From assembly GCA_963835065.1 (NCBI GenBank), contig CAWIEK010000063.1, positions 160,001 through 224,000 of the forward strand: a stretch of DNA of 64,000 nucleotides, given 5' to 3'. A model generated the notes under the pieces. It was not told the origin of the DNA and made no database searches. It saw nothing but the letters and a program-made list of their open reading frames with translations. Origin of the DNA: an uncultured Chthonomonadaceae bacterium (GTDB taxonomy: Bacteria > Armatimonadota > Chthonomonadetes > Chthonomonadales > Chthonomonadaceae). Below are positions 19,769-62,760 of this stretch, piece by piece (position 1 is the first letter of the stretch; every line of letters starts with the position of its first letter). The translations under genes were made by a program, and so were the position numbers.

Positions 19769-21125
19769 ATGAACCGGTATCAATGGACGGTCTTGTTCGC
19801 GGCCTGGCTGGGTTGGGGCTTCGACATGTTTGACGCGACGCTGTTTACCCAAGTGGCGGATAAGTGCGTCCCAACCCTGCTGCATGTACCTTCGGCTCTT
19901 CGCAGGTTTCCCTGTGGATGGGCATACTGACATCGGCGCTGCTGCTCAGTTGGGCGGCGGGCGGTGTGTTATTCGGGTGGGTGGCGGATCGGATCGGACG
20001 CGCTCGTACCCTAATGCTGACCATACTCCTATACGCCATCGGCACAGCCTGCTGCGCGTTTGCGCCCAACGTCTGGGTGCTGCTGCTGTTTCGCGTGATT
20101 TCGGGGATGGGCATTGGGGGCGAATGGGCGGCAGGCGCGAGTATCGTGGCCGAGACGGTTCCCGAAGAGCGGCGTGTGCAAGCGGGCACACTGTTGTATA
20201 CCGCCGCGCCAGTCGGCCTGTTTCTCGCCACATTCGCCAATGCGCAGATCGCGGGCAATCTCCTCAAAGGGCACCCGGATGTATCCTGGCGCTATGTGTT
20301 CCTGTGCGGCCTGATCCCTGCCGCCTTTGCCCTTCTGGTGCGCAGATGCGTGAAGGAGCCTGAGGGTTGGACAACTGCGACAACGACAGCGTCTCACAAG
20401 CCGCGTTTGCGCGAGATGTTTGCGGACGTGCGCGAACTGTTTAAGCCCGAAAACATCCGATCCACCCGAAGCGGTCTGATCACGTCCCTGATGGCTTTGA
20501 CTGCCTGGTGGAGCTGCTATGCTTTCATCCCGGAAGTAGCCAGAAACCTGGCGATAAAGAGCGTGGGTGAGCGTCATTTTGACCACCTTAAGATGATGAT
20601 CTGGCCGAACAATACAAGGCGCTGGCAGCCAATAGCTTCCACTGGGGCGGATTGTTAGGAATTTTGCTCATGATGGTTGCCGCCAAATACATGAGACGGC
20701 GCAACATGTTCAACGTATACTTTCTGTGTTCCGCCGCCGCCCTGTTCGCCACGTTCGGGCTGGACCTACAGGCCGAAACGCTCCTGCGCATGTATTTCTT
20801 GCTCGGCGTGACCGTATTCGGCGTGTTCAGCAGTTTCACCTACTATTTGCCGGAACTGTTTCCCACGCGGCTGCGCGCGACTGGATCGGGCTTCTGTTAC
20901 AATATCGGGCGCATTATCGCCGCCTTCGGAACGTTTTGGGTCGGGCACGTGGCTGCCGGCGGCCTTGAAGCCGTGCTGCGCGCGCTGTACTGCATCGGGT
21001 TTGTGCTGCTCTTTGGCCTGCTGTTCGTGCCCGGGATCGTCGAGACGTACAAACTGAATCTGGGTCATGGAGACCTGGCACCAGGTGTTGGCATGGGACC
21101 AGCCCTCCCACAAGGTGGAACGTAG
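19769..21125 (+). CDS. MFS transporter, split by two frameshifts (~19890 and ~20600-20650); start uncertain
   Basis: QWTVLFAAWLGWGFDMFD; GWVADRIGRAR; GMGIGGEWAAG; PELFPTRLRATGSGFCYNIGR across three consecutive frames. Confidence 0.88.
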
Positions 21126-42677: not shown

Positions 42678-45077
42678 TTGAACAGATTGATGCTGACACG
42701 ATCCCCGGCGCGGCTGCTTACAGATAAGGTCCGAGTAGAAGCGGTTTCCGCTTGCGCCCCGATGCTGACCGCCGCGCAACTGCACGAATGTTATCTGGAA
42801 GCGGTGTACGGCTATGTGGCGCGGCGCGTGGCGCTCCGTCAGGAAGCCGAGGATATTACGGCGGAAGTGTTTGCCGCCGCCTTTGCCGGCCTGCCCGGTT
42901 TTCGGGGCGAGTTTCCCCTGGCCTGGCTGCTGGGGATTGCGCGGCGCAAAATCGCGGATGGGAGGCGCAGCCGGGAAAAGCGACGCGAAACGCTTGCCTC
43001 GGAAATGGCCTTGACGCCGGAAGAAACAAGCGCGTTACTGGAAAATTTGGGAGCCGCAGCGCCCACCCCGGAACAAGCGCTGCATCAGCAGGAAGCGCGG
43101 CAACATATCCGCGCGCTCGTGGACAATCTGCGTCCCGATCAGCGCGAAGCCCTTCTCCTGCAATACGTGGAAGAGTTGTCCATTGTGGAAATCGCGGCAG
43201 TGATGCAGCGCTCGCCCCACGCCGTCAACAGCCTGCTGCAGCGCGCCCGCGCCAACATTTTCCGCGAAGGTCGCGCGTACTTCCTGCCGGATACCACTGC
43301 GTCGGATACTACTTCTGACGAATCCCGCAACCGCCGCGAAAGGCATGGTAAAACCATGAACATTTTCGAGAACATTTTTACTCGTTTCTCGCGCCGCCTG
43401 TTTGCAGCGCCTGCGCCGTCTGTCCATTCTTCTGCGCCGGACACGGATGCAGGGCGCGAAACGACGCTGCGCGAAGTTTTGCAACAGTCGTATGCCGCCC
43501 CGGATGTGCCGAACACCCTGCGGCAGCGCGTTGCCGAATTGGCCGTTTTGAACCATCAGCGGCAGGTGATGCAGCCCATCATTCGGGCGCACTGGCCGCG
43601 CATTGCGCTTGGCGTCACGCTTTGCAGCCTGATGACCGTTGGCGCAGTGGCGTGGCCGCGCCTTCACGCCGTCCTGCTGCTGCGCCAGATGCGATTTGCA
43701 ATGCAGAACGCGCAAACGGCGCATATCGTTACCTGGCAAATGTGGTCCGATGATTGTACGCGCCACAAGCAGATCGAAGCGTTTTACAATAATGGGCAGT
43801 GGCATATCGAAAAATCGTACGGCAACTGGATACACGAACTTCACGAAAGCCTGCGCGCCCCGGATCACTCGACTGCGGTGGAAGAGGTGTTTCGCCCGCC
43901 GAATTTCAACCCTATGAAGATGCCTTCTGTGATCGCCCTGCCGGAAGAATTGATGTTTGTCGGCCTGCAATCGCGCGTGGCGACAGGAAACAAAACCATC
44001 ATACAGGGCAAATCCTGTACGGTCTATATCTGGACAATGGATAACTTGCCCCGTGAAAGTCAGGATATCACGCTGGAAGACAAAACAGGGCTGCCGGTCG
44101 AAAGCGTGTGGCGGCATCAGGATGAAAACGATGTGTGGCAGACCACCGCTATTGTGGAGTACGAGTTCAATGTTTCAAGCGCGCAATTTCCCACAGGCAT
44201 GTCCCTATCCCCTCCTCGGCGTGAAGGCATTGGAGCGACTCGAGATGAATGGGAAAACAGGCTGCAAACGCCCCGAGCCTATATGCAACGCGGCAAAACC
44301 ATTATTGCCATTCGGGATTTGCGCGTCAACAGCGATGGCGACGTGTTTGTGCTGTACACGGCGGGCCACAAGCCCGGCTGGTATCCAGAGTGGGACATTA
44401 CCGCCACCGATGATCAGGGCAACACCTATTTGTACAGCATGCGCTCACCGTTTCATCCAACCATTATGGAACACAATCGTGTGAAAGGCTTCACGTTCAA
44501 CGGCGAAGCGCTGGATGCTGCGCACCTGACGCCGCTGTATCCTTTGAAAGACACCGGAACCGCATGGAAGCCGCGTCACCTGACTATCGCATTGTATCCC
44601 CGTAACGCGGACGCCGCGCTCGCTTATGTGAATGATGGCAAACGCGACAAGTACATGCCGCTGAAGTTTACCCTGTTCGTGGAGCAAGCGGACACGCGGC
44701 GCGTTCCAGGCTACATGCCCTACATGGCGATGTCTCCCTGCGGACTCTACCCGGAGTACGGACTGCAAAGCGAGGCGGCTTGGACGCGCGCTTGCTACTG
44801 GCGGAACGTGAAACACGATCTGGCACAAGCCCTGACATGGTTCCAGCGCATGGAAAGTATTGATAATGCGGAATCACGCCTCCATCACTGGCAGATAAAC
44901 AACGTGTTCGATCTGCTGGAAGAGGCTAAACTGCAAACCTTGCTCGGCCGCCATGCAGAAGCGCGTCAAACCTTACGCCGCGCTGATGCCCGCCGCGCTT
45001 ATGCGGACGCTGCTTCTGTTCGTGAACTAGACGCCGCTTTGCGGAAGGAATCAGGCGCTAAGAGCCTATCCCAATAG
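42678..45077 (+). CDS. ECF sigma factor joined in frame to an anti-sigma-like membrane protein (probably two genes, second start at 43356)
   Basis: Region 2 EAEDITAEVF and region 4 DQREALLLQYVEELSIVEIA; then PDVPNTLRQRV, a TM helix and a large extracytoplasmic domain. Confidence 0.8.
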   Translation: MNRLMLTRSPARLLTDKVRVEAVSACAPMLTAAQLHECYLEAVYGYVARRVALRQEAEDITAEVFAAAFAGLPGFRGEFPLAWLLGIARRKIADGRRSREKRRETLASEMALTPEETSALLENLGAAAPTPEQALHQQEARQHIRALVDNLRPDQREALLLQYVEELSIVEIAAVMQRSPHAVNSLLQRARANIFREGRAYFLPDTTASDTTSDESRNRRERHGKTMNIFENIFTRFSRRLFAAPAPSVHSSAPDTDAGRETTLREVLQQSYAAPDVPNTLRQRVAELAVLNHQRQVMQPIIRAHWPRIALGVTLCSLMTVGAVAWPRLHAVLLLRQMRFAMQNAQTAHIVTWQMWSDDCTRHKQIEAFYNNGQWHIEKSYGNWIHELHESLRAPDHSTAVEEVFRPPNFNPMKMPSVIALPEELMFVGLQSRVATGNKTIIQGKSCTVYIWTMDNLPRESQDITLEDKTGLPVESVWRHQDENDVWQTTAIVEYEFNVSSAQFPTGMSLSPPRREGIGATRDEWENRLQTPRAYMQRGKTIIAIRDLRVNSDGDVFVLYTAGHKPGWYPEWDITATDDQGNTYLYSMRSPFHPTIMEHNRVKGFTFNGEALDAAHLTPLYPLKDTGTAWKPRHLTIALYPRNADAALAYVNDGKRDKYMPLKFTLFVEQADTRRVPGYMPYMAMSPCGLYPEYGLQSEAAWTRACYWRNVKHDLAQALTWFQRMESIDNAESRLHHWQINNVFDLLEEAKLQTLLGRHAEARQTLRRADARRAYADAASVRELDAALRKESGAKSLSQ

Positions 45078-45309: not shown

Positions 45310-46816
45310 CTACCACAACTCTATCTTCTCCAAAGACGCAGTTGCAAGCACAGACGTAGCCGCCACCGCTTCCTGCCAATCCCCGCCCGCATAAAACGCC
45401 AGGTTCAGCGCGTCCATATCGTCCGGCGAACGGCCCAACCGCTTTTTTGTGTCCGCTTTCGGTTCCACGACCCGCCGCCCCTGCGCATCCACCTTCCACG
45501 TCGGAGCCATCGCCTGCGCCCGCAGCAGATTGCGCGACGCTTCGCTCAGGCGCGACAAATCCAGCCGTCCTTCCGCCGCCCGCCCGCTTGCGGCAAACCA
45601 CAATTCCGTGCGCGTGTTCGGAAAACGCTCCTCTTCCAAGGCCCGGCTGCTGCTGTTCACGCCCACAAACGTAAACCCTTCCGCAAGGTCAACCACCGCG
45701 CCCTGCACGTCGTCAATACGGCACGTCACGGTTTGCGGGTCTTCCTGCGGCAGCGCGTACGTTCGGCACAACTGCTTCAAGCGCCCCGCAATCTGCCTGT
45801 TGTCCCAGCCGTTATGCGTTTCGTGCCACAGCGCGCAATTGCCCCGCCGCGCCACGATGCTCGTAAAATCATCCCCGAACCGCGCCTTATCGCACCCGAT
45901 TTGCAGCCGTTCGCCCTCCATCACCTTCTGCGGTTCCAGACATGCCAGCCACAATCCTTCCGTCCACACGCTCACGCTCCCCTGCGTGGGCCACAATCCC
46001 AGCACCCGGCTTTCAAACAGCGGGCCGGGACGATGCCATTTCCCGCTCCCGCTCGGAAACTCGAAATCCTGCGCCTGACGGTCTTCTGTCAATACAGCCG
46101 TACACCATTCCGCGATCCGCCCCTGCACCCATTCCAGCCGAACGGCGCGGGGAAACGGCGCAGGCTTGCCTTCCAGCTCCGCCGCGATATTCGGATGCTC
46201 CAAAGCCGAAATCTCCATCACATGCCACTTCTGCGTGTTCTGGCACTCCTCATACGCGCGGCTCGCCGCGTCCGTCGGGTTCAAAATCACCAGCCAGTAG
46301 CACTCCACACCCGTCATCATGCCTTCCGCCGCATCCCAGAACGCGCTGTCTACGCCCGTCGCCTCATCAAACACGATCAGCACATGCTCCGCATGGCAGC
46401 CCTGAAAGCCGCTGTCATCCCGCGCCGTATACCCGATGGCGAAATGTTCCGGGCTTGTCTCCATCCGGCAGGCGCGCGGCAGCAAAACGCCCCGCTGTGA
46501 TGCGGGGCGCTGGGAGCGTATCTCCTTCCACAAAATATCCTGCACCTGCCGCGCTGTCGGCGCAGTGGTAATGCACAAGCCCGGATCAAAGCAGTCAAAA
46601 AACCAGTTGACCAGTCCACCCGCCAGAAACGATTTTCCGACGCTGTGACTGGCCTTCACGAACACCCGCTTATGCTGCATCAGCGCCCGCGCCACCTCCA
46701 CCTGCTTGTCCCACCACCTGTACGCCCAGCACCTCCTGCGCGTACCTCACAGGATCATTGCGATACCGCGCCAATGCCGCGCTGTCCTTCCCCGTTGCTT
46801 TCTCACCACCCTTCAT
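45310..46816 (-). CDS. terL: Phage terminase large subunit (frameshift near 46715)
   Basis: N-terminus RYRNDPVRYAQEVLGV from ATG 46816; Walker A KASHSVGKS; Walker B LIVFDEA; ILNP; nuclease IGCDKARFGDD and SPDDMDAL. Confidence 0.85.
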
Positions 46817-49125: not shown

Positions 49126-50514
49126 TTACTTCGTCGCCACTTTCGGCGGCGCTTTTTTCGCCAGCGCCGCTTCCGTGTACTTGCAGCCGGCGTTCCACAG
49201 CAGAAACTCGTGGATGCCGAGTTCATGGAGCGCCTTGATTTGCGCTTTCACTTCCGTTGGGCCGTAGTGGGGCGGGCCGAGCGTGAAGTCCTGTATCCAA
49301 GGACGCAGTTTGCAGGTCGGTACGCTGCCAATCAGGTCTTTGGCGTCACCGACAGATTTGAGGATGATTTTGTAGGGTTCCGCGTTGGGGTTGGCGATGC
49401 CGAATTCGCCGTGCGCGTAGTGCGAGGGGTACGTCATGGGGCACATATAATCCACATGGGTCGCCATCTGGCTGAACAGCTGGCCGATGCCCATGTCTTT
49501 GGCAATCTTATCATCCTTGACACTCTTGCCTGCCATGCTCTTGCTCGTGGCGGATGCGGCAGTCAGCGTAGTTTTGCCGTTTGCAGGCTGCCCCGCCGGT
49601 TTCGGCGTTGACATCCCTGACGCGCCCGGCGCAGCATTGCCCATCTTTGCGCTTGCCCCATTCGCGTTTGCCGTTTGCGGCGTGTCTTCGCCGTGCAGGC
49701 GTCGGAAGCGGCGTTCCACTGTCGGGGTCAGGCCGAACACGTCGGCGGAGAAATACGCGCCATGCGCCCGTATCTTCTCCCCCGCGTATTTCAGGAAAGC
49801 GTTGATCTGGTCAATGCGCAGCGAACCGGGAGGCTTGCCGGGATATTGCAGCGTGGAGATTTTGCCCTCGCTTGGAAACCGGACGTAATCGAACTGTATC
49901 TCCTTGAAGCCGTGCTTGATGGCGTCCAGCGCCACATCCACGTTGTAATCCCATACCTCCTTTTTATAAGGGTTCAGCCAGTAGTGGCGTGAGCGGTCGT
50001 GCCATACCTGGCCGTCCGGCCCATGCACCGCCAGGTCCGGGTGGGATTTGGCAAGCGGCGTGTCGCGCATACAGGCAATACGGGCAATCGGCCAGATGTG
50101 GTGCTGATTGAGTGTGGCAATTACCGTATCCACTTTGTACATTCTGCGGGACGCATGGGAGGATATGGCAAGCGGAACATCCGCGTCGTAACTGAGTTCG
50201 CCGTCATCCTTGACATCAATGACCATCGCGTTGAGTTCCGTCCGATCCACCATGCCGCACAGCGCATTAAGACGGTTGTGCAGTCCCGCCGTCCAGCCGG
50301 TCAGATAAATGCCGCGAACGCCGCCTTCGGGCAGGGGCGGGAGCGGAATCGCGGCAGGGGCAGCGGCAGCCATTTTCCCGGCAGGTTTCTGCGCGGCAGG
50401 CGTGGTAGCAGCCGTGTTGCTAGTGGAACGGTGACAGCCGCTCGACAGCAGCATCGCGCCCAGCAAAGCAAAAGTGCGGCTTAACAGAAGGGAGTTCGGC
50501 AGCGCGCCGCTCAT
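49126..50514 (-). CDS. Putative glycoside hydrolase DUF4015 lipoprotein
   Basis: LSSGC lipobox; NAMVIDVKDD; EIQFDYVRFP; PMTYPSHY; RPWIQDF. Confidence 0.88.
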   Translation of the reverse strand: MSGALPNSLLLSRTFALLGAMLLSSGCHRSTSNTAATTPAAQKPAGKMAAAAPAAIPLPPLPEGGVRGIYLTGWTAGLHNRLNALCGMVDRTELNAMVIDVKDDGELSYDADVPLAISSHASRRMYKVDTVIATLNQHHIWPIARIACMRDTPLAKSHPDLAVHGPDGQVWHDRSRHYWLNPYKKEVWDYNVDVALDAIKHGFKEIQFDYVRFPSEGKISTLQYPGKPPGSLRIDQINAFLKYAGEKIRAHGAYFSADVFGLTPTVERRFRRLHGEDTPQTANANGASAKMGNAAPGASGMSTPKPAGQPANGKTTLTAASATSKSMAGKSVKDDKIAKDMGIGQLFSQMATHVDYMCPMTYPSHYAHGEFGIANPNAEPYKIILKSVGDAKDLIGSVPTCKLRPWIQDFTLGPPHYGPTEVKAQIKALHELGIHEFLLWNAGCKYTEAALAKKAPPKVATK

Positions 50515-50875
50515 TGGGCTGCGTCGCTGAAAAGTACGTCGCTGAAAAGAAGGCACATATTTCGGCATGGTTTGATTACAAACTTTCTGCGCCCGGATTG
50601 CGTCAAGAGCGCATCAATAGGAGTGAAAAGGGCGGATTGCGCGGCGCGGGGGAACACGTCAGACATAGAAACCCCTGCGCCTTTGCGGTATATTTCGGGG
50701 AAAGCCGCGCATATTCCTTTGCTTTTATGGAGGATACGTTTTCGAATTTAAGGCAGTCGCCTGAGCCGGAAATTGAAATCAACATAAGCGAACAGTGAAA
50801 ATTCATTTTTTATGACAGTCAGAGAGCAAGCAGAAACGGCGGCAAAAATAATTTTGTAAATGGGACAAAAATGGC

Positions 50876-50904
50876 TTGACAGAATCAGCAAGGTATGTTA
50901 TTGT
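50876..50904 (+). promoter_or_regulatory. Sigma70-like promoter for the Rhs operon
   Basis: TTGACA-17 bp-TATTGT with an extended TGn element. Confidence 0.6.
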
Positions 50905-50963
50905 GTAGAAGCCTGCTGGAAATACCGTATACTTTGTTCCTATTCTCAAGAGGACACACTCTG

Positions 50964-53900
50964 ATGCCGGACAACTCTTCGCGTGATCGCTCTGCCGGTA
51001 CTGGTTCTGCTAAACACGTAGACAAAAGTACCCCCCCCGAATTTTCTTCTCCTGCGGACGCCGCTTCGGGAACGGCTGACAACCCGGAAGTTAACGCTTC
51101 GCGCCGCTCGTTCCTGAAAGGGCTGGCGTCGCTTGGAACCGGCTTGGCTGCTTCCACACTGCTGCCCGCTTCTTCCGACGCGCAGTTTGGCGGCGGCGGG
51201 GGAGGAGGCGTACCCGTTGCGCCGGGTTCTCCTAAATCGTGGCAGGCGAGTGTGGGTCTCTATGGCGGCAACTTCTGCCTGAGCGCCGGCAACACGCAGT
51301 TGAGTTTGCCTGTGTGCGGCTGGGGCGGACTTGGGCGGCGGCATTTCCTTTGCCCTGACCTTCAACAGCCAGAGCAGCCGAACCAGCACCGTCGGACCCA
51401 AGTGGACGCACAGCTACAACATGTTTCTCACCGGCACATCTCCTGTTGTGCTTGTCGAGGGGGATGGAACCGAAACCGCGTATGCGGTGAGCGGAACCAC
51501 GTATACGCCGCCTGCCGGGTGCTATGACAGCCTTGTTCAGAACGGTAACGGAAGCTGGACGCTGACGCGCAAGGGTGGCGTAAAGCTCAACTTCACGGCT
51601 GCGGGCGTATTGAGCAGCATTGTGGACACCAACGGCCTGACGACTACTTTGACGTACACGGGTGGACTGTTGACAACCGTGACCGACCCTGCCAGCCGAA
51701 CCCTGACGCTTGGGTATACGAGCGGACAGTTGACAACCGTGACGGACTGCCAGAGCAAGACCTACACGCTCGGCTACACAAGCGGCAAACTGACCAGTCT
51801 GACCACACCGCCTTTGTCCGGGCAAACGTACAATCAACAGATGACCTACGACAGCAACAACAACGTCGCCTCGCTTTCAGATCGTCTTAGGCCGCACATG
51901 GGGCTATGCGTACTCCGGCAACGTCCTGAGCAGCACCACGCTGCCCGGCGGCGGCGGCGGCGGCTACATGCACATCGTTTCCGGCACGTTCGGTGGCTCC
52001 CCCTGGCCTGCCACTGCCACCAACTTCAGCCACTGGCACGACGCCAACGGCAACATCACGCAGTACGGCATGGACAACTTAGGGCGCATCGTGGGCGTCG
52101 TGGACGCCAACAGCAACATGAGCGTGTTCACGTATGACAACAGCCACAACCGCACGGCAACCCAACTCCCCTCCGGCAAAACGTTCAACTCCACCTTCGA
52201 CACGCTATGGCAATGAACTGGTGTCACAAGACCCGCTCGGACACCAGACGGTCAAGACAGTAGACGGGCCAAGCGGCAGATTGCTCACCAGTACGGACGC
52301 ATTGAGCCATGTGACGAACTATGGCTACGACACGCATGGCAACCTGACCAGTGTTCAGGACGGAAACGGACATACCACAAGCTACGGCGTCAACACGCTT
52401 GGACAGCAAACGAGTTTGACGGATGGGGAAAGCCGAACGTGGCTGACGGGCTACGATGCCAATGGCTTTCCCAACAGCTCTACGGATCCCCTCAGCCATG
52501 TGACCTCGTGGGTCAACAACAGCCTGGGACAGCAGACACAGCGAACCGATCCCCTGAGCCGCGTCACCAACTACACCCTTGATGATTGGGGCAGAACAAC
52601 GGCAGTAGCGTACCCCACGAGCGGCAACACGGGACTTGGCTTCGTGTACAATGCAGCCGGGCAGTTGACGCAAAGCAGCGATGTGACGGGTATTCGCAAC
52701 TACGGCTACAACACGCTCGGCCAGCGAACGAGCATGACCGATCCACGCGGCAACACAGCAGCCACGTATGACCCGCTTGGCAACCTACTGACACAAACCG
52801 ATGTGAGCAGCAGGCAGGTGAGCAACACCCTCAACAGCCTCTACCAACTCGCCTCCGTGTTGGACGGCAACGACAGCGCCCATGCTGACTACGCCTACAA
52901 CGTGGATGGGCTTGTCAGCACAATAACCTACCCCAACGGCACACAAACCACGTATGGCTACGATGGCGCAAACCGCCTCACCAGCCTCAGCCACAAAGTG
53001 GTGGCAACGAACACGGTTCTGGTCAGCTATGCCGCCACGTATGATGCTGCCAACCGGCTGACGAGCATCACGGAGCAGCCAAGCGGGGACGTAACCACGT
53101 TCAGCTATGACAATGCCAACAACCTTCCTTAGCGAAGTCAGGACAGGCACAAAGCCCTACAGTGGCACGTACACGTATGACAACAGCAACCGGCGCAAGA
53201 CGGCTCTTGTCGTCACCAACGGAGTAACCACGCACAACGGCGCGTACACCTACGACGGAGCCGGAAGGTTGACGCAGGTGGTGGACAGCGCCACCAGCCT
53301 GACAGAGTTGTACACGTGGAACAACGACGGAACGCTGGCAAGCGCGCCGGGAAGCGGGTACACGAAGCTGTTCCAGTATGATGAAGAGCAGCATCTCACC
53401 CGCATCCAGCACAACACCGGCAGGAACCATCACAACCGCTTACGACTACGGCTATGCGGCGGATGGCGGCAGGCGATGGAGGAAAGACTATGCCAACAAC
53501 GTGTGGACATGGTATCCCTGTGGCGTGGCCTGCAACGCGGGAGAACTCGTGGAGCAAACAAGCGACCTGACAGGCGCAACGTGGACAACAAGCGCCCTGT
53601 ACTTGAAGGCGGGAAGTGGATGCGGCACAGGCATTGTTCGCCGCAACAGTGAATACCATCACGCAGGCATTGGCGGCAACATCAATCTGGTGAGCGGAGC
53701 CGGCGCGGCTGTGCTTGCCACGCGCATTTCCAACGCTTTTGGCGTACAGCAGTATGCCAGTGGCAGCGCGCAGACACCCTGGATTACCAACGCGGTTTCT
53801 GCGGACGCAGAGGGACTGCAACTGCGCGCAAACTGCCTGCTGGTTGCGGAACGCGCTCTCAGTGTTTCTGCTGTTTGCCAGGTAGTTACTCCCGTTATAC

Positions 53901-54163
53901 CGGAAGAGGACAAAACCTGTGAGCAATTGGGCTTGCCCGAAGGCACTGGTTACAAAAAGTGGCGAGACTGTACGGGAAAACGACTGACAGATTGCGAGGG
54001 ACCTTGTGGCATTGCAGGAGGAAAAGTAAAAAAATGCTGTGAGGTTCAGACTGCCCCGATTCATGGGACAGATAAAACTATCCATCAGTCGCATTGTGAA
54101 TGTGAAGGTGTGCCAGTTCGCATTCCCGGCCAACCTACGCCCACGCCTGTTGCAGCTGTCTGA
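50964..54163 (+). CDS. Tat-signal Rhs/YD-repeat protein with Cys-rich C-terminal tip (about five frameshifts)
   Basis: SRRSFLK signal ending SDAQ; GPKWTHSY; many YD/DPxG shell repeats continuing across frames at ~51335, 51890, 52210, 53125 and 53420. Confidence 0.88.
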
Positions 54164-54174
54164 GGAGAATCATC

Positions 54175-55368
54175 ATGGTCAAACAAGGCCTAGCAGCGCT
54201 TTGCCTGTTGCTTCTGGCAGTAGCATGGTGTCAGGCAGAAGCGCAGGCAGATACCAGCCATCAGCGAAATATTCCCCTGCACAACGTGCTGGCAACCGCG
54301 AAGTCCCTAGCGTTCACCGCCAAGCTGACGTATAGCAGTTATGGAGCGCCTTCAAACGTACGCAAACAGGGGCCAACCTTCCTGGTCAAAGTCCGCAAGC
54401 CCGACTGCCTGCGCATAGAGGAGCGTCTGGAGGACCTTCGCCACGCAAAGGGCAACTTTATTGTTGTTCCTTACGACGCTCTGATCACAAATGGCAAGTC
54501 GCAAATTGATCAGAACTTAACCTCAAAGAAGTACACACTACGCCCACCAGCCAGATCATTGGCTGAGGTGCAAAGTGAAGAAGGCATTGATTCCCTCGTC
54601 TGCTGTAGCCTTCTGTTCGCGCCTGACATGCTGCGCACTACCAGTGCGAAATATGAAGGAGAGGAGGTAATTGAGGGACAGAAAGTGGCCGTATACCGCG
54701 CGCCGCCCCCACAGATCGGCCACGCGCAGTATGTACTTTACCTCGATCCCGAAAGCGGCTTGCCGCGCCGCATCTCACTGTTCGACAAAGACGCAGACGG
54801 GCATATCTTCGAGTGGGAGCGCACAGACTTTAGTGACTGGCAGCTCAATCCAAACCTGCCGGACGCCTTGTTCGACACCACGCCGCCCGCTGACTTCCAC
54901 TTGGATCCACCGGATGAACCCGCCTATGATGCCAAGTGGAAAGCGGGCATGATGCCTACACCCTTACGCGCTTCCACTTTAGGGGGCAAGCCGCTGACGT
55001 TGGACACGTACAAGGGCAAAGTGCTGCTGGTGGACTATTGGGCGTCGTGGTGCGGGCCGTGTCTTGGGGAAATACCCGATGTATTGGCGATGTACCTGAA
55101 ACTGCACAAGCAAGGCTTCGACATCATCGGCATCTCACTTGACAAACCAGACCAACGCGCCCAACTGCACGAGTACCTCAATCGAAAACAACTGCCCTGG
55201 CCGCAGGTCTGCGACTATAAAGGCTTTAACAGTCCGCTTGCCGCTGCGTATCAGGTAAACGCCATTCCGTTCAACGTGCTGATTGGGCGCGACGGCAAGA
55301 TTGCGGGCATCAACCTGCATGGCGACGAACTCAAGCAGGCCGTGCAGAAAGCGTTAGGCAGCAAATAG
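54175..55368 (+). CDS. Secreted LolA-like (DUF2092-like) plus TlpA thioredoxin-fold protein
   Basis: Signal peptide; LYLDPESGLPRRI...DWQLNPNLPDALF; KVLLVDYWASWCGPC; GAGGAG RBS directly after the Rhs stop. Confidence 0.9.
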   Translation: MVKQGLAALCLLLLAVAWCQAEAQADTSHQRNIPLHNVLATAKSLAFTAKLTYSSYGAPSNVRKQGPTFLVKVRKPDCLRIEERLEDLRHAKGNFIVVPYDALITNGKSQIDQNLTSKKYTLRPPARSLAEVQSEEGIDSLVCCSLLFAPDMLRTTSAKYEGEEVIEGQKVAVYRAPPPQIGHAQYVLYLDPESGLPRRISLFDKDADGHIFEWERTDFSDWQLNPNLPDALFDTTPPADFHLDPPDEPAYDAKWKAGMMPTPLRASTLGGKPLTLDTYKGKVLLVDYWASWCGPCLGEIPDVLAMYLKLHKQGFDIIGISLDKPDQRAQLHEYLNRKQLPWPQVCDYKGFNSPLAAAYQVNAIPFNVLIGRDGKIAGINLHGDELKQAVQKALGSK

Positions 55369-55467
55369 ACATACATCCCTGCGGCTCGGCTCTTTGAAAC
55401 AAAAGTACGGGACGCAGGGATGTTGTTTTACACCGCCCCAAATTGTGAGTCGAATGACGTATCTTGT

Positions 55468-55912
55468 CTAACCCGTAAGAGGGCCGTAGTACAGGCCGCG
55501 CGCCTGCGCCAATTCCTTGCCCTTGTCCAGCAGGGCGAGGCGTTCCGCGCTCGAAAGCGGCTTGTAACTGCGCGCTACTTTGACGGCCTGCCGCACCTCG
55601 TCCGCGCTGCTGAAGCCCACTACCGCGCAGCACACGCCCTTTACGCCCAGCGAATAGCGAATGGCCTGCGCGTGGTACGCGGCCAGCGTTGCCGGGATTT
55701 TGCCGTCGTACTTCCAGCCCATGCCCCGCCCAGCACCTTCATCGCTACAACCGCCGTGCCGTGCTTTTGCGCGGCGGGCAGCGCCAATCCCTCGAAATCA
55801 TACGTGTGCCGATCCGCGAAGTTGAGCGCGTTCATCGTCGGGTCAATGTGGCCGGTTTCAATTGCCTGCGCGAACCGGGGCGGGTGCATGTGCCCGCTGG
55901 TTCCGCTGGTTC
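55468..55912 (-). pseudogene. 5'-truncated aldo/keto reductase (C-terminal half only)
   Basis: GTSGHMHP...VVAMKVLGG...AIRYSL...PLSSAER; there is no room for the N-terminal half before the neighbouring gene's stop at 55945. Confidence 0.72.
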
Positions 55913-55944: not shown

Positions 55945-58884
55945 CTACTTGATGATGGCAATCGGGAAATCCGGTACGGAGGGGGGCTTGGTGGTGGTTG
56001 GGTGCTGGCCGCCGCCGGTCAGTTCCTTGACGCGCTCGGACAGGAAATAGTCCAGACTTGTCACCGTGACGCGCCCGTCGCCCTTCAGGTCAGCCTTGCC
56101 GCTCAAGCCTTCCAGCAGGGCTTTGGTGAACGCGCCGTGTCCCCATTTAGCGTCTTCCAGCGCATACTCCTTGCCGGTTGAGGCGGCAAATACGACCGCG
56201 CCATTTGGGGCGTCCGCCAGTTCGTTGACGATTTTCACGATGTCCGATTCCAGCCCGCGCGTTTTGCCGCCCGCGCCGCCCGAATGACAAGTATCCACAA
56301 AGAACAGCACCTTACCCGCAATGTCTTTGACGGTCTTTTCCACCTCGTAAAACAACACGCCCGTACTGCGCTTGTGTTCCATGTCGAAGTTATAGGGCGC
56401 GTAATAGTAGTCGCCGTTGCTGTCGTTAACGCCATGCCCGGACAGGAAAATCATGGCAATATCCCGCGAGGTGGTCTGCTTTTGTATCCATTCCAGCCCG
56501 TCCAGAATGGAGTCCTTGCCTGCGCCGTCGTCCGTGAGCAGTTTTACTTCCACGTCCCGGTACAGTTTGCCGCCCTGCTGTTTCAGCGCGTCTGCAAAGT
56601 CTGTCGCGTCTTTGGCAGCGTAATTAAGCGTGTAATCGGGGTTTTTGTATTTGCTGACGCCACACGCCAGAATGTAGAGTTTGGGTTTGGTAATGTCAAC
56701 CGGAGCCTTGCCCTTCCAGCGCAGGCGAACGGTTGCGGGCTGGCCCGCGCCGTGTTTGTTTTCCGCGATAATGGACAATTCGCAGTCGTGGTCAGGAAGG
56801 GTCACATCCAGCGTTTGCGTGGACTCGGCGCTCGGCTTGTCGGCCACCTCCTGTATGCGCCGCGCATTGCTCATTGGACGCCCATCTATGAGGGCGCGAA
56901 CGCCCGTGATGGGCGCGTCGGCAGGCGAGCGAACCGTAAACTGAACCTTCACGCTGGCATCGGCCTGTTCGGTATTGTTTTGCGGCGAAACAATGGCGAC
57001 AACGGGCGGCAGGGTTTTATTGACATCCGCCACATTGGTTTTGCGGCCCCGCGCCGCATCCGCCTGTTTCAAGGCCGCGTCTTCATCCCCGGTTTTGAGC
57101 ATCCGCTCCACAACATCCGGGCGATAGTACGTATCGCGGAACCGGGACGCGGGGAAAAAGTCCGCCGACTGGGCCTTACCCCGATTGATGTGCCAGCCAA
57201 TCAGGTCTTCACTGCCGACTGCCGCGTCGTAATAGCCGCTCGCGGTCCAGGCGATCCACTGTTTCTGGTCTATGTGCGGAAACACCGATAGCAGCAGAGT
57301 GGGTTCCTTGATATGAATCCAGCGAATCGTTCCATCGTTAATCAGCAGCACGGCGGTTTCGCCGTCTTTGCTGACATTGATCTGCCAGGCAACGCCGGGT
57401 GTGGCAAGCGCCCACTCCTCTTTGCCGTTCGCGTCCAGCAGGCGCAGCGCGAAATCGCCGCCGAGCAGAAATCGCTTATGATCGGGCAGAATTGCCAGGC
57501 TGCGGGCCGCTTCGTTCATGCTCAGTTCGATGGGCTTACCGTTCACTTTGGGGTGCATGCCGTTTTCCCAATCCGTGATTTTCAGTCCGGGTACGCCCAC
57601 AATAGCATCATGCAGTCCGGCTTTTTCTCCCGCCGCAAGCGCGTCCCTGGGATTGTCGGCAATGCCGGTTTCCATTTTGCGCTGTGAAGCGTGGAAGCGG
57701 ACGGTTGCTTTGTCGTTGGGCAGCGTGGAAAACTGAACGGTTTCGGCATCATCGGAAATCAAAAACGTGGTGCGCTGCATGTCAACGGTGGGGGATTCAA
57801 ACAGGCGGGCTTTATCGCCCTCCAGAACGCCCCACAGCGGATCGCCTGCCGCGTAAAGCATCGGCCCGATTTTGAGGGGACGCAGAGCCGTGATCGTCTG
57901 GCTGGATGCGGCTATGTCCACGAACTTGCCTTTACCGCCCTGATCGTAACGGCGAATGATCCGAACGGCGGTGTTGTTTTGAACCACAGCCGTTCGACCT
58001 GCCGCAAACAACGATTTGCCGTCGGCAGACCACGCCACCTCATCAAAGGCGGAACCGGGCAGTTTGACATCCTCGGTTGCGGGCGCGTACAGCAGGGACA
58101 GGTCTTTGACGGCAAGCACGTTGATGTTTTTGGTGTCGCCGAATCCGACCGCGAGTTTGTCGCCTTCGGGCGAAAACGCGACCGCATGGGGGTGTGTGCC
58201 GCCGGACGCTTTCTGGCGAATGGCGAGTTTGTAATCCGGCGTGTAGACGCGAATAAAGCCGTCTATGGCGGCAACGGCCAGCACGCCATCGGATCGGAAA
58301 TCCATCCCTACACAGTCCCCGGCATACTCTTTGTCCTCCAGAACCGTGCCGCCATCCGATACGCGCAAGACGCGCAGCCCCTGCTTGCCGGCCAGCCCCG
58401 CCGCAATGGTTTTGCCGTCGGGCGCATAGCGCAACACCTGCACGGCTTCCGGCAGGCCGGTCAGGCGGCGCGTGAGTTCGCCCGTCGTTCGGTCGAACAG
58501 GTAGATGCTGATGGCCTTATCCCACGCATAGCCCGTGATGCCGCTGCACGCGATCTGTTTGCCATCGGGCGAAATCGCAACGGAATACAACTGCCCGTCG
58601 CCGCTCCCGAAGGGAACATGAACCGTTCGCTGCAATTCGCCCGAAGCCAGGTCCCAGATACGGAGTGTGCCGTCCAGCGAACACGTTGCGAAGAACGTTT
58701 CTTTTGCGTCTACCGCCAAATCTTTAATCACGCCCGTATGGGTTTTGGTTTCCACCCGCAGCATGGGCTTTGTCGGCGGCTCGTCCGCGTATCCGCGCGT
58801 TCCGATTGCGCCGAACAGCAGGGCCAATCCCGCCAGCAGCGAACCTTTATTTACGACGCGACGCGCGTTTGTGATGCCCAACAT
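55945..58884 (-). CDS. Secreted WD40 beta-propeller plus caspase (peptidase C14) protein
   Basis: Signal peptide; HTGVI...DGTLRIWD; WTASGYYDA; IFLSGHG and FVDTCHSG dyad; AAGGAG RBS. Confidence 0.93.
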   Translation of the reverse strand: MLGITNARRVVNKGSLLAGLALLFGAIGTRGYADEPPTKPMLRVETKTHTGVIKDLAVDAKETFFATCSLDGTLRIWDLASGELQRTVHVPFGSGDGQLYSVAISPDGKQIACSGITGYAWDKAISIYLFDRTTGELTRRLTGLPEAVQVLRYAPDGKTIAAGLAGKQGLRVLRVSDGGTVLEDKEYAGDCVGMDFRSDGVLAVAAIDGFIRVYTPDYKLAIRQKASGGTHPHAVAFSPEGDKLAVGFGDTKNINVLAVKDLSLLYAPATEDVKLPGSAFDEVAWSADGKSLFAAGRTAVVQNNTAVRIIRRYDQGGKGKFVDIAASSQTITALRPLKIGPMLYAAGDPLWGVLEGDKARLFESPTVDMQRTTFLISDDAETVQFSTLPNDKATVRFHASQRKMETGIADNPRDALAAGEKAGLHDAIVGVPGLKITDWENGMHPKVNGKPIELSMNEAARSLAILPDHKRFLLGGDFALRLLDANGKEEWALATPGVAWQINVSKDGETAVLLINDGTIRWIHIKEPTLLLSVFPHIDQKQWIAWTASGYYDAAVGSEDLIGWHINRGKAQSADFFPASRFRDTYYRPDVVERMLKTGDEDAALKQADAARGRKTNVADVNKTLPPVVAIVSPQNNTEQADASVKVQFTVRSPADAPITGVRALIDGRPMSNARRIQEVADKPSAESTQTLDVTLPDHDCELSIIAENKHGAGQPATVRLRWKGKAPVDITKPKLYILACGVSKYKNPDYTLNYAAKDATDFADALKQQGGKLYRDVEVKLLTDDGAGKDSILDGLEWIQKQTTSRDIAMIFLSGHGVNDSNGDYYYAPYNFDMEHKRSTGVLFYEVEKTVKDIAGKVLFFVDTCHSGGAGGKTRGLESDIVKIVNELADAPNGAVVFAASTGKEYALEDAKWGHGAFTKALLEGLSGKADLKGDGRVTVTSLDYFLSERVKELTGGGQHPTTTKPPSVPDFPIAIIK

Positions 58885-58894
58885 GGCGAACTCC

Positions 58895-60112
58895 TTATTT
58901 TGGCGTGGTAATGCGCAGTTTCTGAACGCGCCAGCCTTCGGGCGCATGGGAAATCTCATCCAGCAGTTGTTTCAAAGCGGAGGCAGGTTCGGAACGGTTT
59001 TCCTGATTGCCGACGCCATTGAGCATCTGAACGGACGCTTCATTCTGCTCCTGGAGGCATACACGCAGGGAATAAGCCGGCGCGCTCTGTAGCGACGGAA
59101 TAAATTTCTTCGCTATGCGCCTGCGGCGGAGTGTCCGAAGGACACAAGCGTCTGCCGTAAGGGAGTTCCGTCCGAAGGATGATTTGGCGGAACGCCGCGC
59201 AGCAAGGAAATGAATTTCCTTGCCCGCATTTAGTCGCTTGCCGGGGGCGCGAACTACATTGAAAATGTTACTTCCCGGCTTTGATGGCCCGCAGAATACA
59301 ATCCACGCCTCCCCCGAACCCTCCGGCAACAAAACCGCCTTTGATAAGGATGTTTGTCCCTTGCGAACCGTCCAACATTCGCCCGCTTCGGATAGACGCG
59401 CCAGATGAAGGCCATTGGCGGAATCACTCAGGAGCAGGTAGGCGCGGCAGGAAACATTCCGGCGGGAGCGCAGGCGGAACGAATGGCCTGCTGTAATCTG
59501 GCGCAGGGGGCGCGCTTCATCATCCGCGCTGACGATTTCCCAGAGCGCGTTTTGCGTCGTCAATTGGGACAAGAGGCGCGTCCATTGCGCCGGGACAGCG
59601 ACCGCATCGGCGTTTAAGCAGGCGACAATCCGGCTTCCCGTTTCGCCCACCAATCCCAGCGCGTGAACGCGCGGGTCGCGGCGGAGATTGACGGTCAGGC
59701 TGCGCAGGGAATCGGCGGTTCCCGCCCATTGCCCGACCAGAGCGTGGGGCGCGGACTCTCGAAACAGGCGCGTGACCAGCAGAAAACGCGCGTTTGTTTC
59801 GTCCGCGCCACCGGTAAAACTCAACTCCCCCTCCACAGTATAGCGCAGGGAAGAGGAGATTTGCTGTGAGGGCGGGCTGCCTTCCACCCCAACCTGAACT
59901 GTTTTCGGGGCGTGATCGGTCAGGAAGCGGGCAAGCGCGGTTGTCAGGCGCGCGTTCAGGCCGCGTTCCAATCCGCCGCCGTCGCGCAGGGGGCGGATGG
60001 TCAGCGTCGTTGCTTGCGCGTGTGTCCGCGTCAGGCAGGTACACGCCAACATCAGCGCCATCAGAGTTGCGCCTGCGCGTTGTATCAACACACACACGAA
60101 GCCTCGCATCAT
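58895..60112 (-). CDS. Secreted hypothetical protein, possible DUF4384-like domain
   Basis: Signal ending THAQ; ATGA overlap with the upstream caspase gene; AGHSFRL...AYLL segment. Confidence 0.6.
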   Translation of the reverse strand: MMRGFVCVLIQRAGATLMALMLACTCLTRTHAQATTLTIRPLRDGGGLERGLNARLTTALARFLTDHAPKTVQVGVEGSPPSQQISSSLRYTVEGELSFTGGADETNARFLLVTRLFRESAPHALVGQWAGTADSLRSLTVNLRRDPRVHALGLVGETGSRIVACLNADAVAVPAQWTRLLSQLTTQNALWEIVSADDEARPLRQITAGHSFRLRSRRNVSCRAYLLLSDSANGLHLARLSEAGECWTVRKGQTSLSKAVLLPEGSGEAWIVFCGPSKPGSNIFNVVRAPGKRLNAGKEIHFLAARRSAKSSFGRNSLTADACVLRTLRRRRIAKKFIPSLQSAPAYSLRVCLQEQNEASVQMLNGVGNQENRSEPASALKQLLDEISHAPEGWRVQKLRITTPK

Positions 60113-61485
60113 TCCACTCCGAACGTCAGGCCGAACGTGTAGTAGGGCTGGCGCTGCGTTTCCGTTTCTATGATACGCTTCATTTTGCGCGGTTCCGCCC
60201 CGTCCTGCGGAAACGCCTTGATTAAGGCGGCGGCATTAGCTTCGTCGGTAAACAGCAGGGCTTTCACGCGCTCCACGCCCGGAGTGTCGGCGGCATACGA
60301 GCGGCCTGAAGCGATGGGCAGGCGAACCACGCTGTTGGCCGAAACCCGCGCCGCGTCCATGCTGCGATTGGCAGGAAACAGCAGGTACACTTTGCCATCG
60401 GTATCTTTTTCCAGCAAAACCAGCCAGCCACTTTGCGCGCCGATTTTGGCTTCAAAAGTAAACGTCTGTTTTACCTTGACCGTGTTCAATCCCGGCGTCA
60501 TGGTCAGCGCGAACAGCGCAGTATCGGTATGGTCCTGGTTGAAATCGTCCCATGCGGTGCGCTTCGGCTCCGGTTTGGGGGACGGGTCGGGTGGGGGCGC
60601 GGGCGTATCCTTGCCGTCAAAGACAGGGCGCGTGGCATAATCGGTCGGGCTGAGTTTGGGCGTTTGCGTCTGCTCCATGTAATCGGCCACTTCGCCGGTC
60701 ACGTCCTTTTGCACCTCGTTCCACAGCGTTTGCGGCGTTGTTTTTTGCAGGCGGGCTGTCAGAAAATGCGTAAACACGCCGCCGCGCTGTCCATCAAAAT
60801 CGTCCTCGCCCGAAGTCTGATTGGCAAGCGAGGCCGTGAAATACACGATTTCCGCGCCTTTTGAGATGTGGTCGTTGCTGTCGCTCTGCACTTCAAGAAT
60901 GGCGCGGCGTCCGTCATTGCCGCCATTGTTTCCGCCGTTGCCGCTTCCATTTGCCGCAGTCCCGCGCTTGTAAAAGCGAGTTTTTTTAACCTGATGTCCT
61001 AACGCGCGCCGACTTAGCCCGCCCGAAAAGCACGAGTCGAGCAGCACGGTTCGGCTGCGGGCGGGAACCGCCATCAGCGCGTTGTACAGTTCATCGCGCA
61101 GCAGGTCGCTGGCTTCTGTCTTTTCGCTGGCATCGCCTGGCAACAGGGCGGACGCGCCATCCGACCCCACGACGCCATGACCGGCAAAGTAGAATACGAA
61201 CCGCTCGTCACTCCGAACCTCGGTTTTCATTTGGGCAAGCGCGTCCAGAATGGCGCGTTTGGACGCCTGCTCGTTTACCAGCGTTTTAACGGTAAAGCCC
61301 CTTCCGGTCAGCGTCTTTTCCATGTTGCGCGTGTCGTTGACGCAGCCCTCCAGATTGCTGCCCCGCGTCAGTTTCGGGTACTCGTTGACGCCGACAAGCA
61401 GCGCCTTATCGGCCCGCGCGTTCGCCCCCACGCCCATCAATCCGCTCACCGCCGCTAACGCAAATAAACCATGCAAACATTTCAT
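60109..61485 (-). CDS. Secreted caspase (peptidase C14) plus DUF4384 protein
   Basis: ALLVGVNEY; LEGCVND; FYFAGHG; LLDSCFSG; GKVYLLFPAN...PGVERVKAL. Confidence 0.92.
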   Translation of the reverse strand: MKCLHGLFALAAVSGLMGVGANARADKALLVGVNEYPKLTRGSNLEGCVNDTRNMEKTLTGRGFTVKTLVNEQASKRAILDALAQMKTEVRSDERFVFYFAGHGVVGSDGASALLPGDASEKTEASDLLRDELYNALMAVPARSRTVLLDSCFSGGLSRRALGHQVKKTRFYKRGTAANGSGNGGNNGGNDGRRAILEVQSDSNDHISKGAEIVYFTASLANQTSGEDDFDGQRGGVFTHFLTARLQKTTPQTLWNEVQKDVTGEVADYMEQTQTPKLSPTDYATRPVFDGKDTPAPPPDPSPKPEPKRTAWDDFNQDHTDTALFALTMTPGLNTVKVKQTFTFEAKIGAQSGWLVLLEKDTDGKVYLLFPANRSMDAARVSANSVVRLPIASGRSYAADTPGVERVKALLFTDEANAAALIKAFPQDGAEPRKMKRIIETETQRQPYYTFGLTFGVE

Positions 61486-61487
61486 TC

Positions 61488-62474
61488 TTATTTCTCCGCA
61501 GGCTCTAAAATGATACTGGCCGTCAGTTGCACGGGTTTTGTCGAGCGGGCAATTGGTCCGCCTGGGCGCTGGCCCCAGCCCTCGATGGCCTGATTGGCGA
61601 CAAAATCCTCATCCAGCCAGACGAATCCCTTGTTGGCCCATTTGTCCGACCACGAATTGACCATCAAAAAGGCGTGTTTGTCTTCGTCGTAGCCCACGAT
61701 GCACACGGCGTGAAGTCCGGCCAGTTCGCCCTTTTTCTCCGTTGGTTTGTACACGAAATCAGGGTCATGGGGAACGCCGAAAAACTCCTGGTAAACAGGG
61801 ATGCCAATGACGAACGGCTGGCGGGTTTCCCACAGCCAATTACGCAGTTTGTCCGCGTCCCCGGCCTCGCCCGCAACGCTGCCTTTGAACAGGCTAACGG
61901 TTTGCCGCGCTTTGTAGCGCGCGGCCCGCGATTTGATTGCATCCGAGGGCTGGCTGTCCGGGTCGGATTCTTTCCAGGGCATGTCGGCAAGCGTGGCGCA
62001 GCCCTGTTTGGCAAGGATGTCGAATGCCTGATAGATGTGCATCCCTTTTTTGGGGTTGCCCGCATTAAACTGATGCCAGATGAACGCGGGGCTGAACTGA
62101 AAACGCGCGTCCTTGCGCTCTTCGGGCGATAATTTGCGCTGTCGCGCAATGGACGTGGAGTAGCAGTAGTACGCCGTTGACCAGCCTACGCACGACCCGG
62201 TTTCGCCCTGATTCGCCACGTCGGGCAAGTCGGCGGCAAGGCTGAATTGTTTGGGACGATCCGCGCTCCGCGTGGCGGCGATACGCGCATGGGGATGACT
62301 GGCGAACGCCTCAGCAGGGGAAGCCACGCAGCCCATTCCCTGCGCGTTACTCCGTGAAGCCAACCCCGCCATGCCCACGAACAGAAGCGCGGAAACTCGA
62401 AAATACCGCGCCACTCTGCGCGAACGTTGTGTATTATGCGAGGCGCTGCGGAAATAGGGTTTGAGTAGAGCCAT
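61488..62474 (-). CDS. Secreted papain-like cysteine protease (C1A)
   Basis: NQGETGSCVGWS; LHAVCIVGY; VNSWSDKWANKG. Confidence 0.93.
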   Translation of the reverse strand: MALLKPYFRSASHNTQRSRRVARYFRVSALLFVGMAGLASRSNAQGMGCVASPAEAFASHPHARIAATRSADRPKQFSLAADLPDVANQGETGSCVGWSTAYYCYSTSIARQRKLSPEERKDARFQFSPAFIWHQFNAGNPKKGMHIYQAFDILAKQGCATLADMPWKESDPDSQPSDAIKSRAARYKARQTVSLFKGSVAGEAGDADKLRNWLWETRQPFVIGIPVYQEFFGVPHDPDFVYKPTEKKGELAGLHAVCIVGYDEDKHAFLMVNSWSDKWANKGFVWLDEDFVANQAIEGWGQRPGGPIARSTKPVQLTASIILEPAEK

Positions 62475-62760
62475 AGATATTCCCCTCGAAAAACTATGAT
62501 ATGTCGGATTTAAAGCGTGATGGTACCCAGCCAAAAATTAGGATGGCAAACGTTAGCAGCGGCGACAAAGGTTTCGGGAGCGTCATACGCGCGGCGGTAG
62601 TCGTGCCTTTACTCGCCGCCCGGTTCGCAGGCGCCGGCACAGCAAAGAATAGCCCGCTTGTATTTATTACCCTGCGTGACAAGTGACCTAGCAGGTTAAA
62701 AAAGAAGGGGATCGAAATCCGGGCGTGTTACAAAATTGATTTGGCGTAAAGCCGAGGGAC

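Follow-up and report, generated by a model that had tools for sequence, protein, structure and literature searches.

A two-gene locus in a 64,000-nucleotide stretch of DNA from an uncultured Chthonomonadaceae bacterium (contig CAWIEK010000063.1 of assembly GCA_963835065.1, positions 160,001 to 224,000; hereafter the window, G000:C63:160001-224000) probably encoded a polymorphic toxin/immunity pair. Namely, the first gene (gene 1) encoded an Rhs shell that had a twin-arginine translocation (Tat) signal, lacked the self-cutting motif and carried an attached Cys-rich tip, and the second gene (gene 2) would provide the immunity through a LolA-like domain. The family of gene 1 was characterised by the Tat motif, the modelled shell fold, the lost autoprotease motif, hypervariable Cys-rich tips, orphan arrays and partners that matched the tips. 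Export, oxidation and release of the tip, its toxicity and its binding by the partner are what we infer for this family. The source genome (G000; the other G, L, P and C codes denote the genomes, loci, proteins and contigs that were compared) was 8.0 Mb long and 92% complete, and the sequence relatives of the locus belonged to Chthonomonadaceae, Fimbriimonas and other Armatimonadota. The locus consisted of the following parts.

50876..50904, plus strand: promoter-like site of the sigma-70 type, TTGACA-17-TATTGT with TG (10/12 matches, a consensus match only)
50964..54163, plus strand: Rhs gene (gene 1), about 1062 aa in six frame pieces, with breaks near 51333, 51889, 52203, 53125 and 53421
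50964..51182, plus strand: Tat signal peptide, twin arginines at 51102-51107, predicted cut after SDA (TIGR01409; motif common to relatives)
51343..51483, plus strand: DUF6531 N-terminal plug (29 bits, cut-off 24.1)
51484..53518, plus strand: YD-repeat shell (PF05593 in four pieces; the model of the intact relative P0007 resembled solved Rhs shells)
53519..53533, plus strand: CGVAC (CxxxC) family motif inside the shell, both Cys invariant
53657..53860, plus strand: shortened Rhs core end without the catalytic Arg, DP or DPxG (profile comparisons; junction read in an independent contig)
53867..54160, plus strand: Cys-rich tip, 98 aa, 9 Cys (four significant relatives, P0132, P0069, P0076 and P0018)
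53957..54106, plus strand: tip core, beta-alpha-beta-beta by prediction, the helix bearing CxxxC and the last strand CxC (AF2 model)
54175..55368, plus strand: gene 2 (the partner), with signal peptide, DUF2092/LolA-like domain and redoxin (Pfam, hidden Markov models)
54283..54894, plus strand: DUF2092/LolA-like domain of gene 2 (38.3 bits, cut-off 21.2)
54970..55329, plus strand: TlpA/ResA-like redoxin of gene 2, WCGPC at 55048-55062
55369..55430, plus strand: terminator-like hairpin followed by a T run (hairpin 55369-55426, -29.8 kcal/mol, z -6.2, 0/200 shuffles)

The Rhs core has been described as ending in DPxG-x18-DPxG with an essential Arg nearby (PMC10684867, PMC13018210, PMC12704120), and Asp mutants of Tse5 as showing neither cleavage nor killing (PMC10684867). 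An earlier note on this DNA, made from the letters alone, had passed over the absence of this R...DP...DPxG motif from the core end of gene 1. The last frame piece of gene 1 gave no match to TIGR03696. Neither did any of 26 long family members (11 and 15 in two sets, some of them with near-identical cores), as against 3/3 canonical Rhs proteins of the source genome, which scored 49-78 bits. A profile of the canonical core end matched 51 of 133 members significantly, and none of these matches went beyond position 70 of the profile's 106 or reached either Asp. P0007 had a Cys at the position of the profile's catalytic Arg. The two-Asp pattern was found in none of the 133 members and a lone DPxG in a single one. 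Judged by these sequences, the family has lost the Arg/Asp/Asp autoprotease motif throughout. The system of genes 1 and 2 would work like a canonical Rhs toxin but does not have this motif, and hence it falls outside the canonical membership. In the P0007 model, the last aligned pairs were 988 to Tse5 1156 and 990 to BiTLP 2125, both between the two catalytic Asp positions. This suggests that the family chain likely follows the inner plug path, so that the tip would start inside the shell; the confidence of the model was low there.

The family was collected by searching 401 Armatimonadota genomes with a profile of the core end (A1). Members were present in 31 of these genomes, which represented at least eight families, and at least 115 representatives had E 1e-30 or better among the best 150 matches. 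The family hallmark was WYPCGVACxAGEL, with both Cys kept in 25/25 rows. A sister clade (P0142, P0143, P0149, P0154-P0156, L150, L151) had YVCRIGC instead of PCGVAC. One protein of this clade, P0149, shared its tip type with L002/L003/L040, and tips therefore move between distant cores. The DUF6531 plug and the YD-repeat shell were both present in gene 1, and their fold was taken from P0007. The AF2 model of P0007 was confident over residues 96-981, and the chain beyond 981, including the tip, was without a confident model. Compared with 8qja_A, it gave a VIA Z of 30.6 and a root-mean-square deviation (rmsd) of 3.8 with 722 aligned residues. The source genome also encoded a paralog (G000:C53:544734-540729, minus strand, L084) that had the same Tat leader, an 87% identical core and a different, helical Cys-rich tip. 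The partner of this paralog was DUF2092 only and thus different from gene 2.

The canonical Rhs genes of the source genome (L085, L086, L087, L088, L089; G000 C53, C41, C49, C1) had the autoprotease motif and Cys-poor tips, and their N-terminal plug motif was common to the family. A long orphan array was located beside canonical Rhs in G000 C53:452000-471900.

Signal peptides were assigned with hidden Markov models (HMMs) and motifs. The leader of gene 1 contained SRRSFLK at residues 46-52, a hydrophobic stretch and an AxA-type site, SDA followed by Q, at residues 71-74, with the predicted cut before the Q. It scored 20.2 bits with TIGR01409 (cut-off 16.7) and 17.2 with Pfam TAT_signal, which was under the cut-off of 22.7. 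The twin-arginine motif was found in the window copy, the paralog, L076, L078, L079, L080, L083, L138, L140, P0005, P0007, P0074, P0123 and P0137. In a quick tree it marked 13 of 29 rows, which fell into two supported clades whose unlabelled rows had no resolved N-terminus. Six family sequences passed the TIGR01409 cut-off, and other clades (L038, P0009, P0055, P0090) had Sec-like or unresolved leaders. The Tat export signal is thus predicted to be common, not universal, in the family. The source genome encoded TatC, VKOR and DsbD and gave four secretin matches; TssC was not found in this 92% complete genome. Gene 1 itself had no PAAR/VgrG-binding domain, unlike Rhs effectors that are delivered through a type VI secretion system (T6SS). 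The twin-arginine leader and the T6SS-independent export that the earlier note had proposed were therefore both in line with our results. PAAR and VgrG/GPD-like genes were located on other contigs (G000:C44:86546-90595, C65:20654-20857) and possibly belonged to an extracellular contractile injection system. Two secretin matches with the same score and open reading frame (ORF) length (G000:C32:24850-25344, C63:9062-9556) perhaps represented a duplicated assembly stretch.

The layout of the locus was largely as first described. The promoter-like site ranked first of 7 in 50400-55600 (shuffled sequence gave a mean of 2.0 sites), gene 1 started with ATG at 50964, and gene 2 began 11 bp past the gene 1 stop, in keeping with the promoter and two-gene unit of the earlier note. 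The unit was closed by the terminator-like hairpin, which that note did not contain and which has a long loop that escaped a simple terminator scan. The signal peptide, LolA-like domain and WCGPC of gene 2 were all recovered. The claimed lack of a PAAR/VgrG-type N-terminus agreed with the Pfam scan of gene 1, which gave RHS repeats and DUF6531 and neither PAAR nor VgrG. The YD repeats were present too, but the shell measured about 890 aa rather than about 1000. Similarly, the tip had 10 Cys if counted from NCLL of the core end, but only 9 followed the core end.

The five frame breaks of gene 1 raised the question whether it was a decayed pseudogene, with gene 2 as a chance neighbour from the expanded DUF2092 family. 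There were five breaks in 3.2 kb, whereas 31 other genes of the source assembly (13,065 aa) had 2 frame changes between them, an excess that poor polishing of repeats would explain. Moreover, neither of two same-genus genomes yielded the locus, and DUF2092 was a multi-copy domain in the source genome. However, all five breaks were single bases, confined to the repeated part and unshared with the paralog, whereas the tip and gene 2 were intact. The six frame pieces mapped in order onto P0007 (1076 aa), and gene 1 read through the breaks with X gave 1062 aa and no stop. The window copy differed from the paralog at 8/4/25% of first, second and third codon positions, with 191 synonymous versus 72 non-synonymous codons and no stop in 844 codons, and a DUF2092 gene followed both family copies of the source genome. 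The reads of one DNA run covered short pieces only. The break near 51889 was absent from an independent contig (one contig, depth 3), and an independent contig also contained the core/tip junction at 53624-53896, gap-free and with 1 mismatch. We consider it very probable that the breaks were sequencing errors, and a pseudogene with a chance neighbour is a most improbable account of the locus. The paralog was also broken by single-base indels.

The tips were expected from the earlier note to vary while staying Cys-rich, and this was clearly the case. The 170 distinct tips formed 113 clusters, and 161 of them had at least 6 Cys, with an even Cys count in 109. Among the representatives, 97/104 tips reached 6 Cys (9.1% Cys) versus 0/11 canonical tips of the source genome (0.4%). 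A strongly hydrophobic stretch was present in 43/170 tips. Six tips had the phospholipase A2 motif CCxxHDxC (L008:3-1082, L130:1069-3486, P0051, P0066, P0128, P0136), with a Pfam E of 0.006 that was under the cut-off. The two of them with known context preceded related PD40 propeller genes in different families.

The AF2 model of the window tip placed a helix at residues 38-49 and strands at 53-61 and 73-80, with pLDDT 83-84 over residues 31-60. In cysteine-stabilised alpha-beta defensins the arrangement is likewise beta-alpha-beta-beta, the CxxxC being placed on the helix and the CxC on a strand. The best VIA match was the APP copper-binding region, with a weak Z of 3.5. AtLURE1.2, a pollen-tube attractant (Z 2.9, rmsd 2.3, 36 of 39), and mytilin (Z 2.5, the lowest rmsd of 1.7, 33 of 34) were both below any reliable threshold. 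Foldseek gave no match for the window tip at E 0.001, the ESM Atlas no usable match, and a PDB sequence search with the tip-class alignment one chance match. In a word-indexed search the tip matched itself only, metagenomes gave two low-complexity chance loci, and the 401 genomes gave three weak matches (E 0.004-0.01). On this weak fold match, the window tip would be defensin-like and not a defensin.

The tips were tightly followed by partner genes. In the fetched loci, the next ORF lay within 285 nt behind 80 of 82 tips, with a median gap of 36 nt. Pfam assigned ankyrin, HEAT, PD40 and small membrane proteins to these 80 partners, most of which were without a known domain. Partner likeness tracked tip likeness, with similar partners in 8/47 tip-similar pairs versus 6/3113 others; the pairs were not independent because of kinship. 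Orphan tip/partner cassettes formed arrays in relatives, for example five cassettes in 7.2 kb of L003, and no such array was found at the window locus itself.

According to the earlier note, gene 2 stood in place of an immunity gene and acted via its CxxC, which would either help the disulfide-rich tip to fold or neutralise it reductively. Several observations were consistent with this. WCGPC and the IPF loop were intact in gene 2 and conserved in P0161 and P0162, and the C-terminal domain, with its thioredoxin fold, CxxC and export signal, is a predicted TlpA/ResA-type oxidoreductase (the ResA model matched with E 1.7e-17, under the cut-off). DsbD, a possible electron donor, was encoded in the genome, and a second redoxin fusion followed a tip of similar spacing in G024. 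P0132 (66% to the window tip) and P0162 (82% to the LolA part of gene 2) each came from one Logan contig 2741 bp long, likely the same for both, which would repeat the pair of this tip and this CxxC fusion. With the pair apparently present in a second record, the window tip may have a local redox role. On the other hand, 78 of the 80 downstream genes had no redoxin though almost all tips were Cys-rich, and the second redoxin partner (G024) had CxxS and no signal peptide. The expectation that a thioredoxin-fold gene always follows a Cys-rich tip thus did not hold. LolA-redoxin fusions without Rhs were also found elsewhere in the source genome. The six further close relatives of the gene 2 LolA domain in the 401 genomes were as follows.

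G024:C528: behind a family tip; CxxS redoxin
G400:C250: behind a family tip; no redoxin; 24% identity
G007:C184: behind a family tip, at a distance of about 960 bp; no redoxin
G295:C30: neighbours are ankyrin and Rhs-fragment genes; no redoxin
G024:C170: no Rhs in view; CxxS redoxin
G003:C395: no Rhs in the 3.7-4.1 kb seen; CxxC redoxin

The first three of these relatives were part of tip/partner arrays of the family. The tips of G024, G400 and G007 had the C-x7/8-CxxxC spacing in common with the window tip, a pattern that was written after seeing them. Since the LolA domain recurred behind such tips without the redoxin (G400 and G007 had it alone), the recurring part was the LolA-like domain and the redoxin was dispensable. 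Gene 2 occupied the ordinary immunity slot rather than replacing an immunity gene, and we regard an action through its CxxC as quite unlikely. The enlarged DUF2092 profile detected 5/80 partners at E < 0.001, and it did not confirm the partners of L002 and L040, which looked LolA-like by eye. Gene-2-like LolA proteins apparently without a signal peptide were encoded at L173:425-1726, L177:1030-2208, L176:1492-2208 and L027:2276-2956, two of them with a CxxS redoxin.

The partners also had to be weighed against a non-toxic role in recognition, where the uncleaved tip would be displayed from the shell, as in teneurins, as an identity or signal ligand and the next gene would encode its receptor. 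An N-terminal hydrophobic segment, or several, was present in 61/80 partners, in favour of this role, but hydrophobic partners were also found behind 7/8 canonical Rhs ends of the source genome with a called next gene. Exported or membrane partners were for this reason rejected as a mark of the family. The loss of the autoprotease paralleled metazoan teneurins, in which the uncleaved C-terminus is described as leaving through the shell wall (PMC13018210), and the attractant AtLURE1.2 was among the nearest small fold matches of the window tip. However, gene 1 had neither an FN-plug nor an NHL domain, phospholipase A2 tips belong to a known toxin class (PMC3482391), and the orphan tip/partner arrays resembled the rhs-CT/rhsI modules (PMC3150448). 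Recognition without toxicity is accordingly an unlikely role for the locus.

For a toxin/immunity pair, the following order of events can be proposed. The shell would fold in the cytoplasm around the reduced tip, and the folded shell would leave through Tat. Oxidation of the tip would take place once it is out of the cytoplasm, and the invariant CxxxC of the shell perhaps mediates it or forms a bond with the tip. The tip would either pass the outer membrane via a secretin system or remain in the envelope, and in place of self-cleavage the opening of the shell or a protease from outside would expose it. The shell would thus bring the uncleaved tip to the envelope of competing cells, where the tip would act. 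Immunity would come from gene 2, whose LolA-like domain would bind the tip and neutralise it. The TlpA domain would be accessory and may help here, without being the immunity principle of the family.

A number of points weighed against such a pair. The toxicity of the tip and its binding by gene 2 are predictions from sequence. The position of the tip inside the shell came from a model without confidence past residue 981. Among the 47 tip-similar pairs, 39 had no detectably similar partner. An HMM of the window tip class did not detect the tips of G024, G400 and G007, and L047 fitted the C-x7/8-CxxxC pattern yet had another partner. Two ORFs separated the tip from the LolA gene in G007. The partners in G024, G400 and G007 seemed to have no signal peptide, which was a poor fit to periplasmic immunity; they may act as cytoplasmic chaperones or be exported together with the shell. 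DUF2092 was present in 11 copies in the source genome, 9 of them without Rhs upstream. The net charge of the window tip was -1 versus a family median of +4, and defensins are cationic, unlike this tip. Finally, the Tse5 Asp mutant is reported as unable to kill (PMC10684867), and therefore the release of a toxin that lacks the protease must take some other route.

A group of Tat shells without tips may be informative about the shell CxxxC. The tipless shells L140, P0123 and P0137 stopped at the core end and lacked the shell CxxxC (3/3 seen). In the quick tree they formed one clade nested among tip-bearing shells, and their loss of tip and CxxxC was therefore one event. The joint absence of the two is a hint on the role of the shell CxxxC. 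A further shell of the tipless type was P0165. The tipless Tat Rhs shell at L140:1-6642 (minus strand; G230:C1, also L156:9365-16642) was 963 aa long. An ORF of about 215 aa, rich in Cys and Thr, lay 38 bp past it, followed by a 410-aa ORF without a Pfam match, which we take to be HopA1-like, and by an 845-aa gene with kinase and LanC-like parts. The ESM Atlas gave no usable match for the Cys/Thr-rich precursor. This neighbourhood resembles a lanthipeptide cluster, for which the shell might serve as carrier; the combination was found in one genome among 401.

Taking these observations together, we offer a wider scenario with considerable doubt. Armatimonadota may have rebuilt the Rhs shell as a Tat-exported container for disulfide-rich peptides, with the autoprotease gone and the shell CxxxC oxidising or tethering the cargo. 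More than 100 kinds of Cys-rich tips, defensin-fold and phospholipase A2 tips among them, would each have their own immunity protein. One derived branch, without tip and CxxxC, would ship a separate Cys/Thr-rich precursor from an adjacent lanthipeptide synthetase.

Other features were found elsewhere in the window. Two short overlapping ORFs of 84 and 82 aa (55468-55889, minus strand) converged on the terminator; they had no Pfam match and presumably represent the split tail of an aldo-keto reductase. They were followed by a cluster that encoded a WD40-caspase protein, a caspase-DUF4384 protein and a papain-family protease (55945-62534, minus strand). On the other side of the locus, a 799-aa ORF (42678-45077, plus strand) combined an extracytoplasmic function sigma factor and an anti-sigma-like region, as either a true fusion or a merged pair. 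A 463-aa ORF (45310-46701, minus strand) had no Pfam match at E 0.05, and we assume from its reading that it encodes a phage terminase large subunit. At 19001-20000 the GC skew was 0.47 and the AT skew 0.39 within one kilobase, and the rest of the window differed from this.

Self-cleavage at DPxG has counted among the defining properties of Rhs toxins, and it is described as needed for killing by Tse5 (PMC10684867). A diversified family with every other toxin-immunity mark but without the motif would imply that tips can be released or displayed in a second way, and the family can be considered as the bacterial counterpart of the teneurins that stay uncleaved. The usual screens with TIGR03696 or DPxG miss it. 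Through the family, 170 distinct bacterial peptide domains rich in Cys become available, and most of them have a candidate immunity gene. Export of a folded shell by Tat, if true, would bear on the cargo size limit of this pathway. We found no description of the family in the literature searched, where most subscription papers and the supplements were outside reach, and large surveys may list its members.

The family had much in common with the canonical Rhs toxins, namely the DUF6531 plug, the YD shell, a variable tip, a tight downstream partner and orphan arrays, the last known as rhs-CT/rhsI modules (PMC3150448). It differed in having a leader of the Tat or Sec type in place of the PAAR/VgrG linkage, a core that stopped before the Arg and both Asp, the invariant shell CxxxC and nearly always a Cys-rich tip. 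Its shell of about 890 aa was also shorter than the solved Rhs shells of about 1020-1085 aa. Toxins of the WapA type are likewise exported by a signal peptide without T6SS, and some of their tips are described as active only from the periplasm (PMC12704120). However, WapA is reported to leave unfolded by Sec, to have wall-binding regions and to autocleave (PMC12704120), whereas the family had neither wall-binding regions nor the autoprotease motif.

Gene 2 shared the exported-type thioredoxin fold, WCxxC and the IPF loop with the TlpA/ResA/DsbE oxidoreductases. Its redoxin was, in contrast, fused behind DUF2092, and it was missing or CxxS in the nearest Rhs-linked relatives. The tip was comparable to cis-defensins, which are already known from bacteria and include the actifensins (PMC6989792, PMC11561630), in its predicted helix with CxxxC and sheet with CxC. 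It differed from them in being fused to an Rhs shell instead of forming a short precursor, in its 9 Cys and in its net charge. Phospholipase A2 tips were also known before (PMC3482391).

Finally, bacterial teneurin-like proteins (TLPs) and metazoan teneurins had the YD shell in common with the family. For TLPs, a figure legend gives TAT/SPI among the predicted signal classes, a disulfide between tip and shell is described for BiTLP, and the C-terminus of metazoan teneurins is described as left uncleaved (PMC13018210). In contrast, TLPs as presented there (PMC13018210) keep the DPxG pair together with FN-plug and NHL domains, all absent from gene 1. In gene 1 the shell began right after the signal peptide, where teneurins have the FN-plug and NHL domains ahead of the shell.

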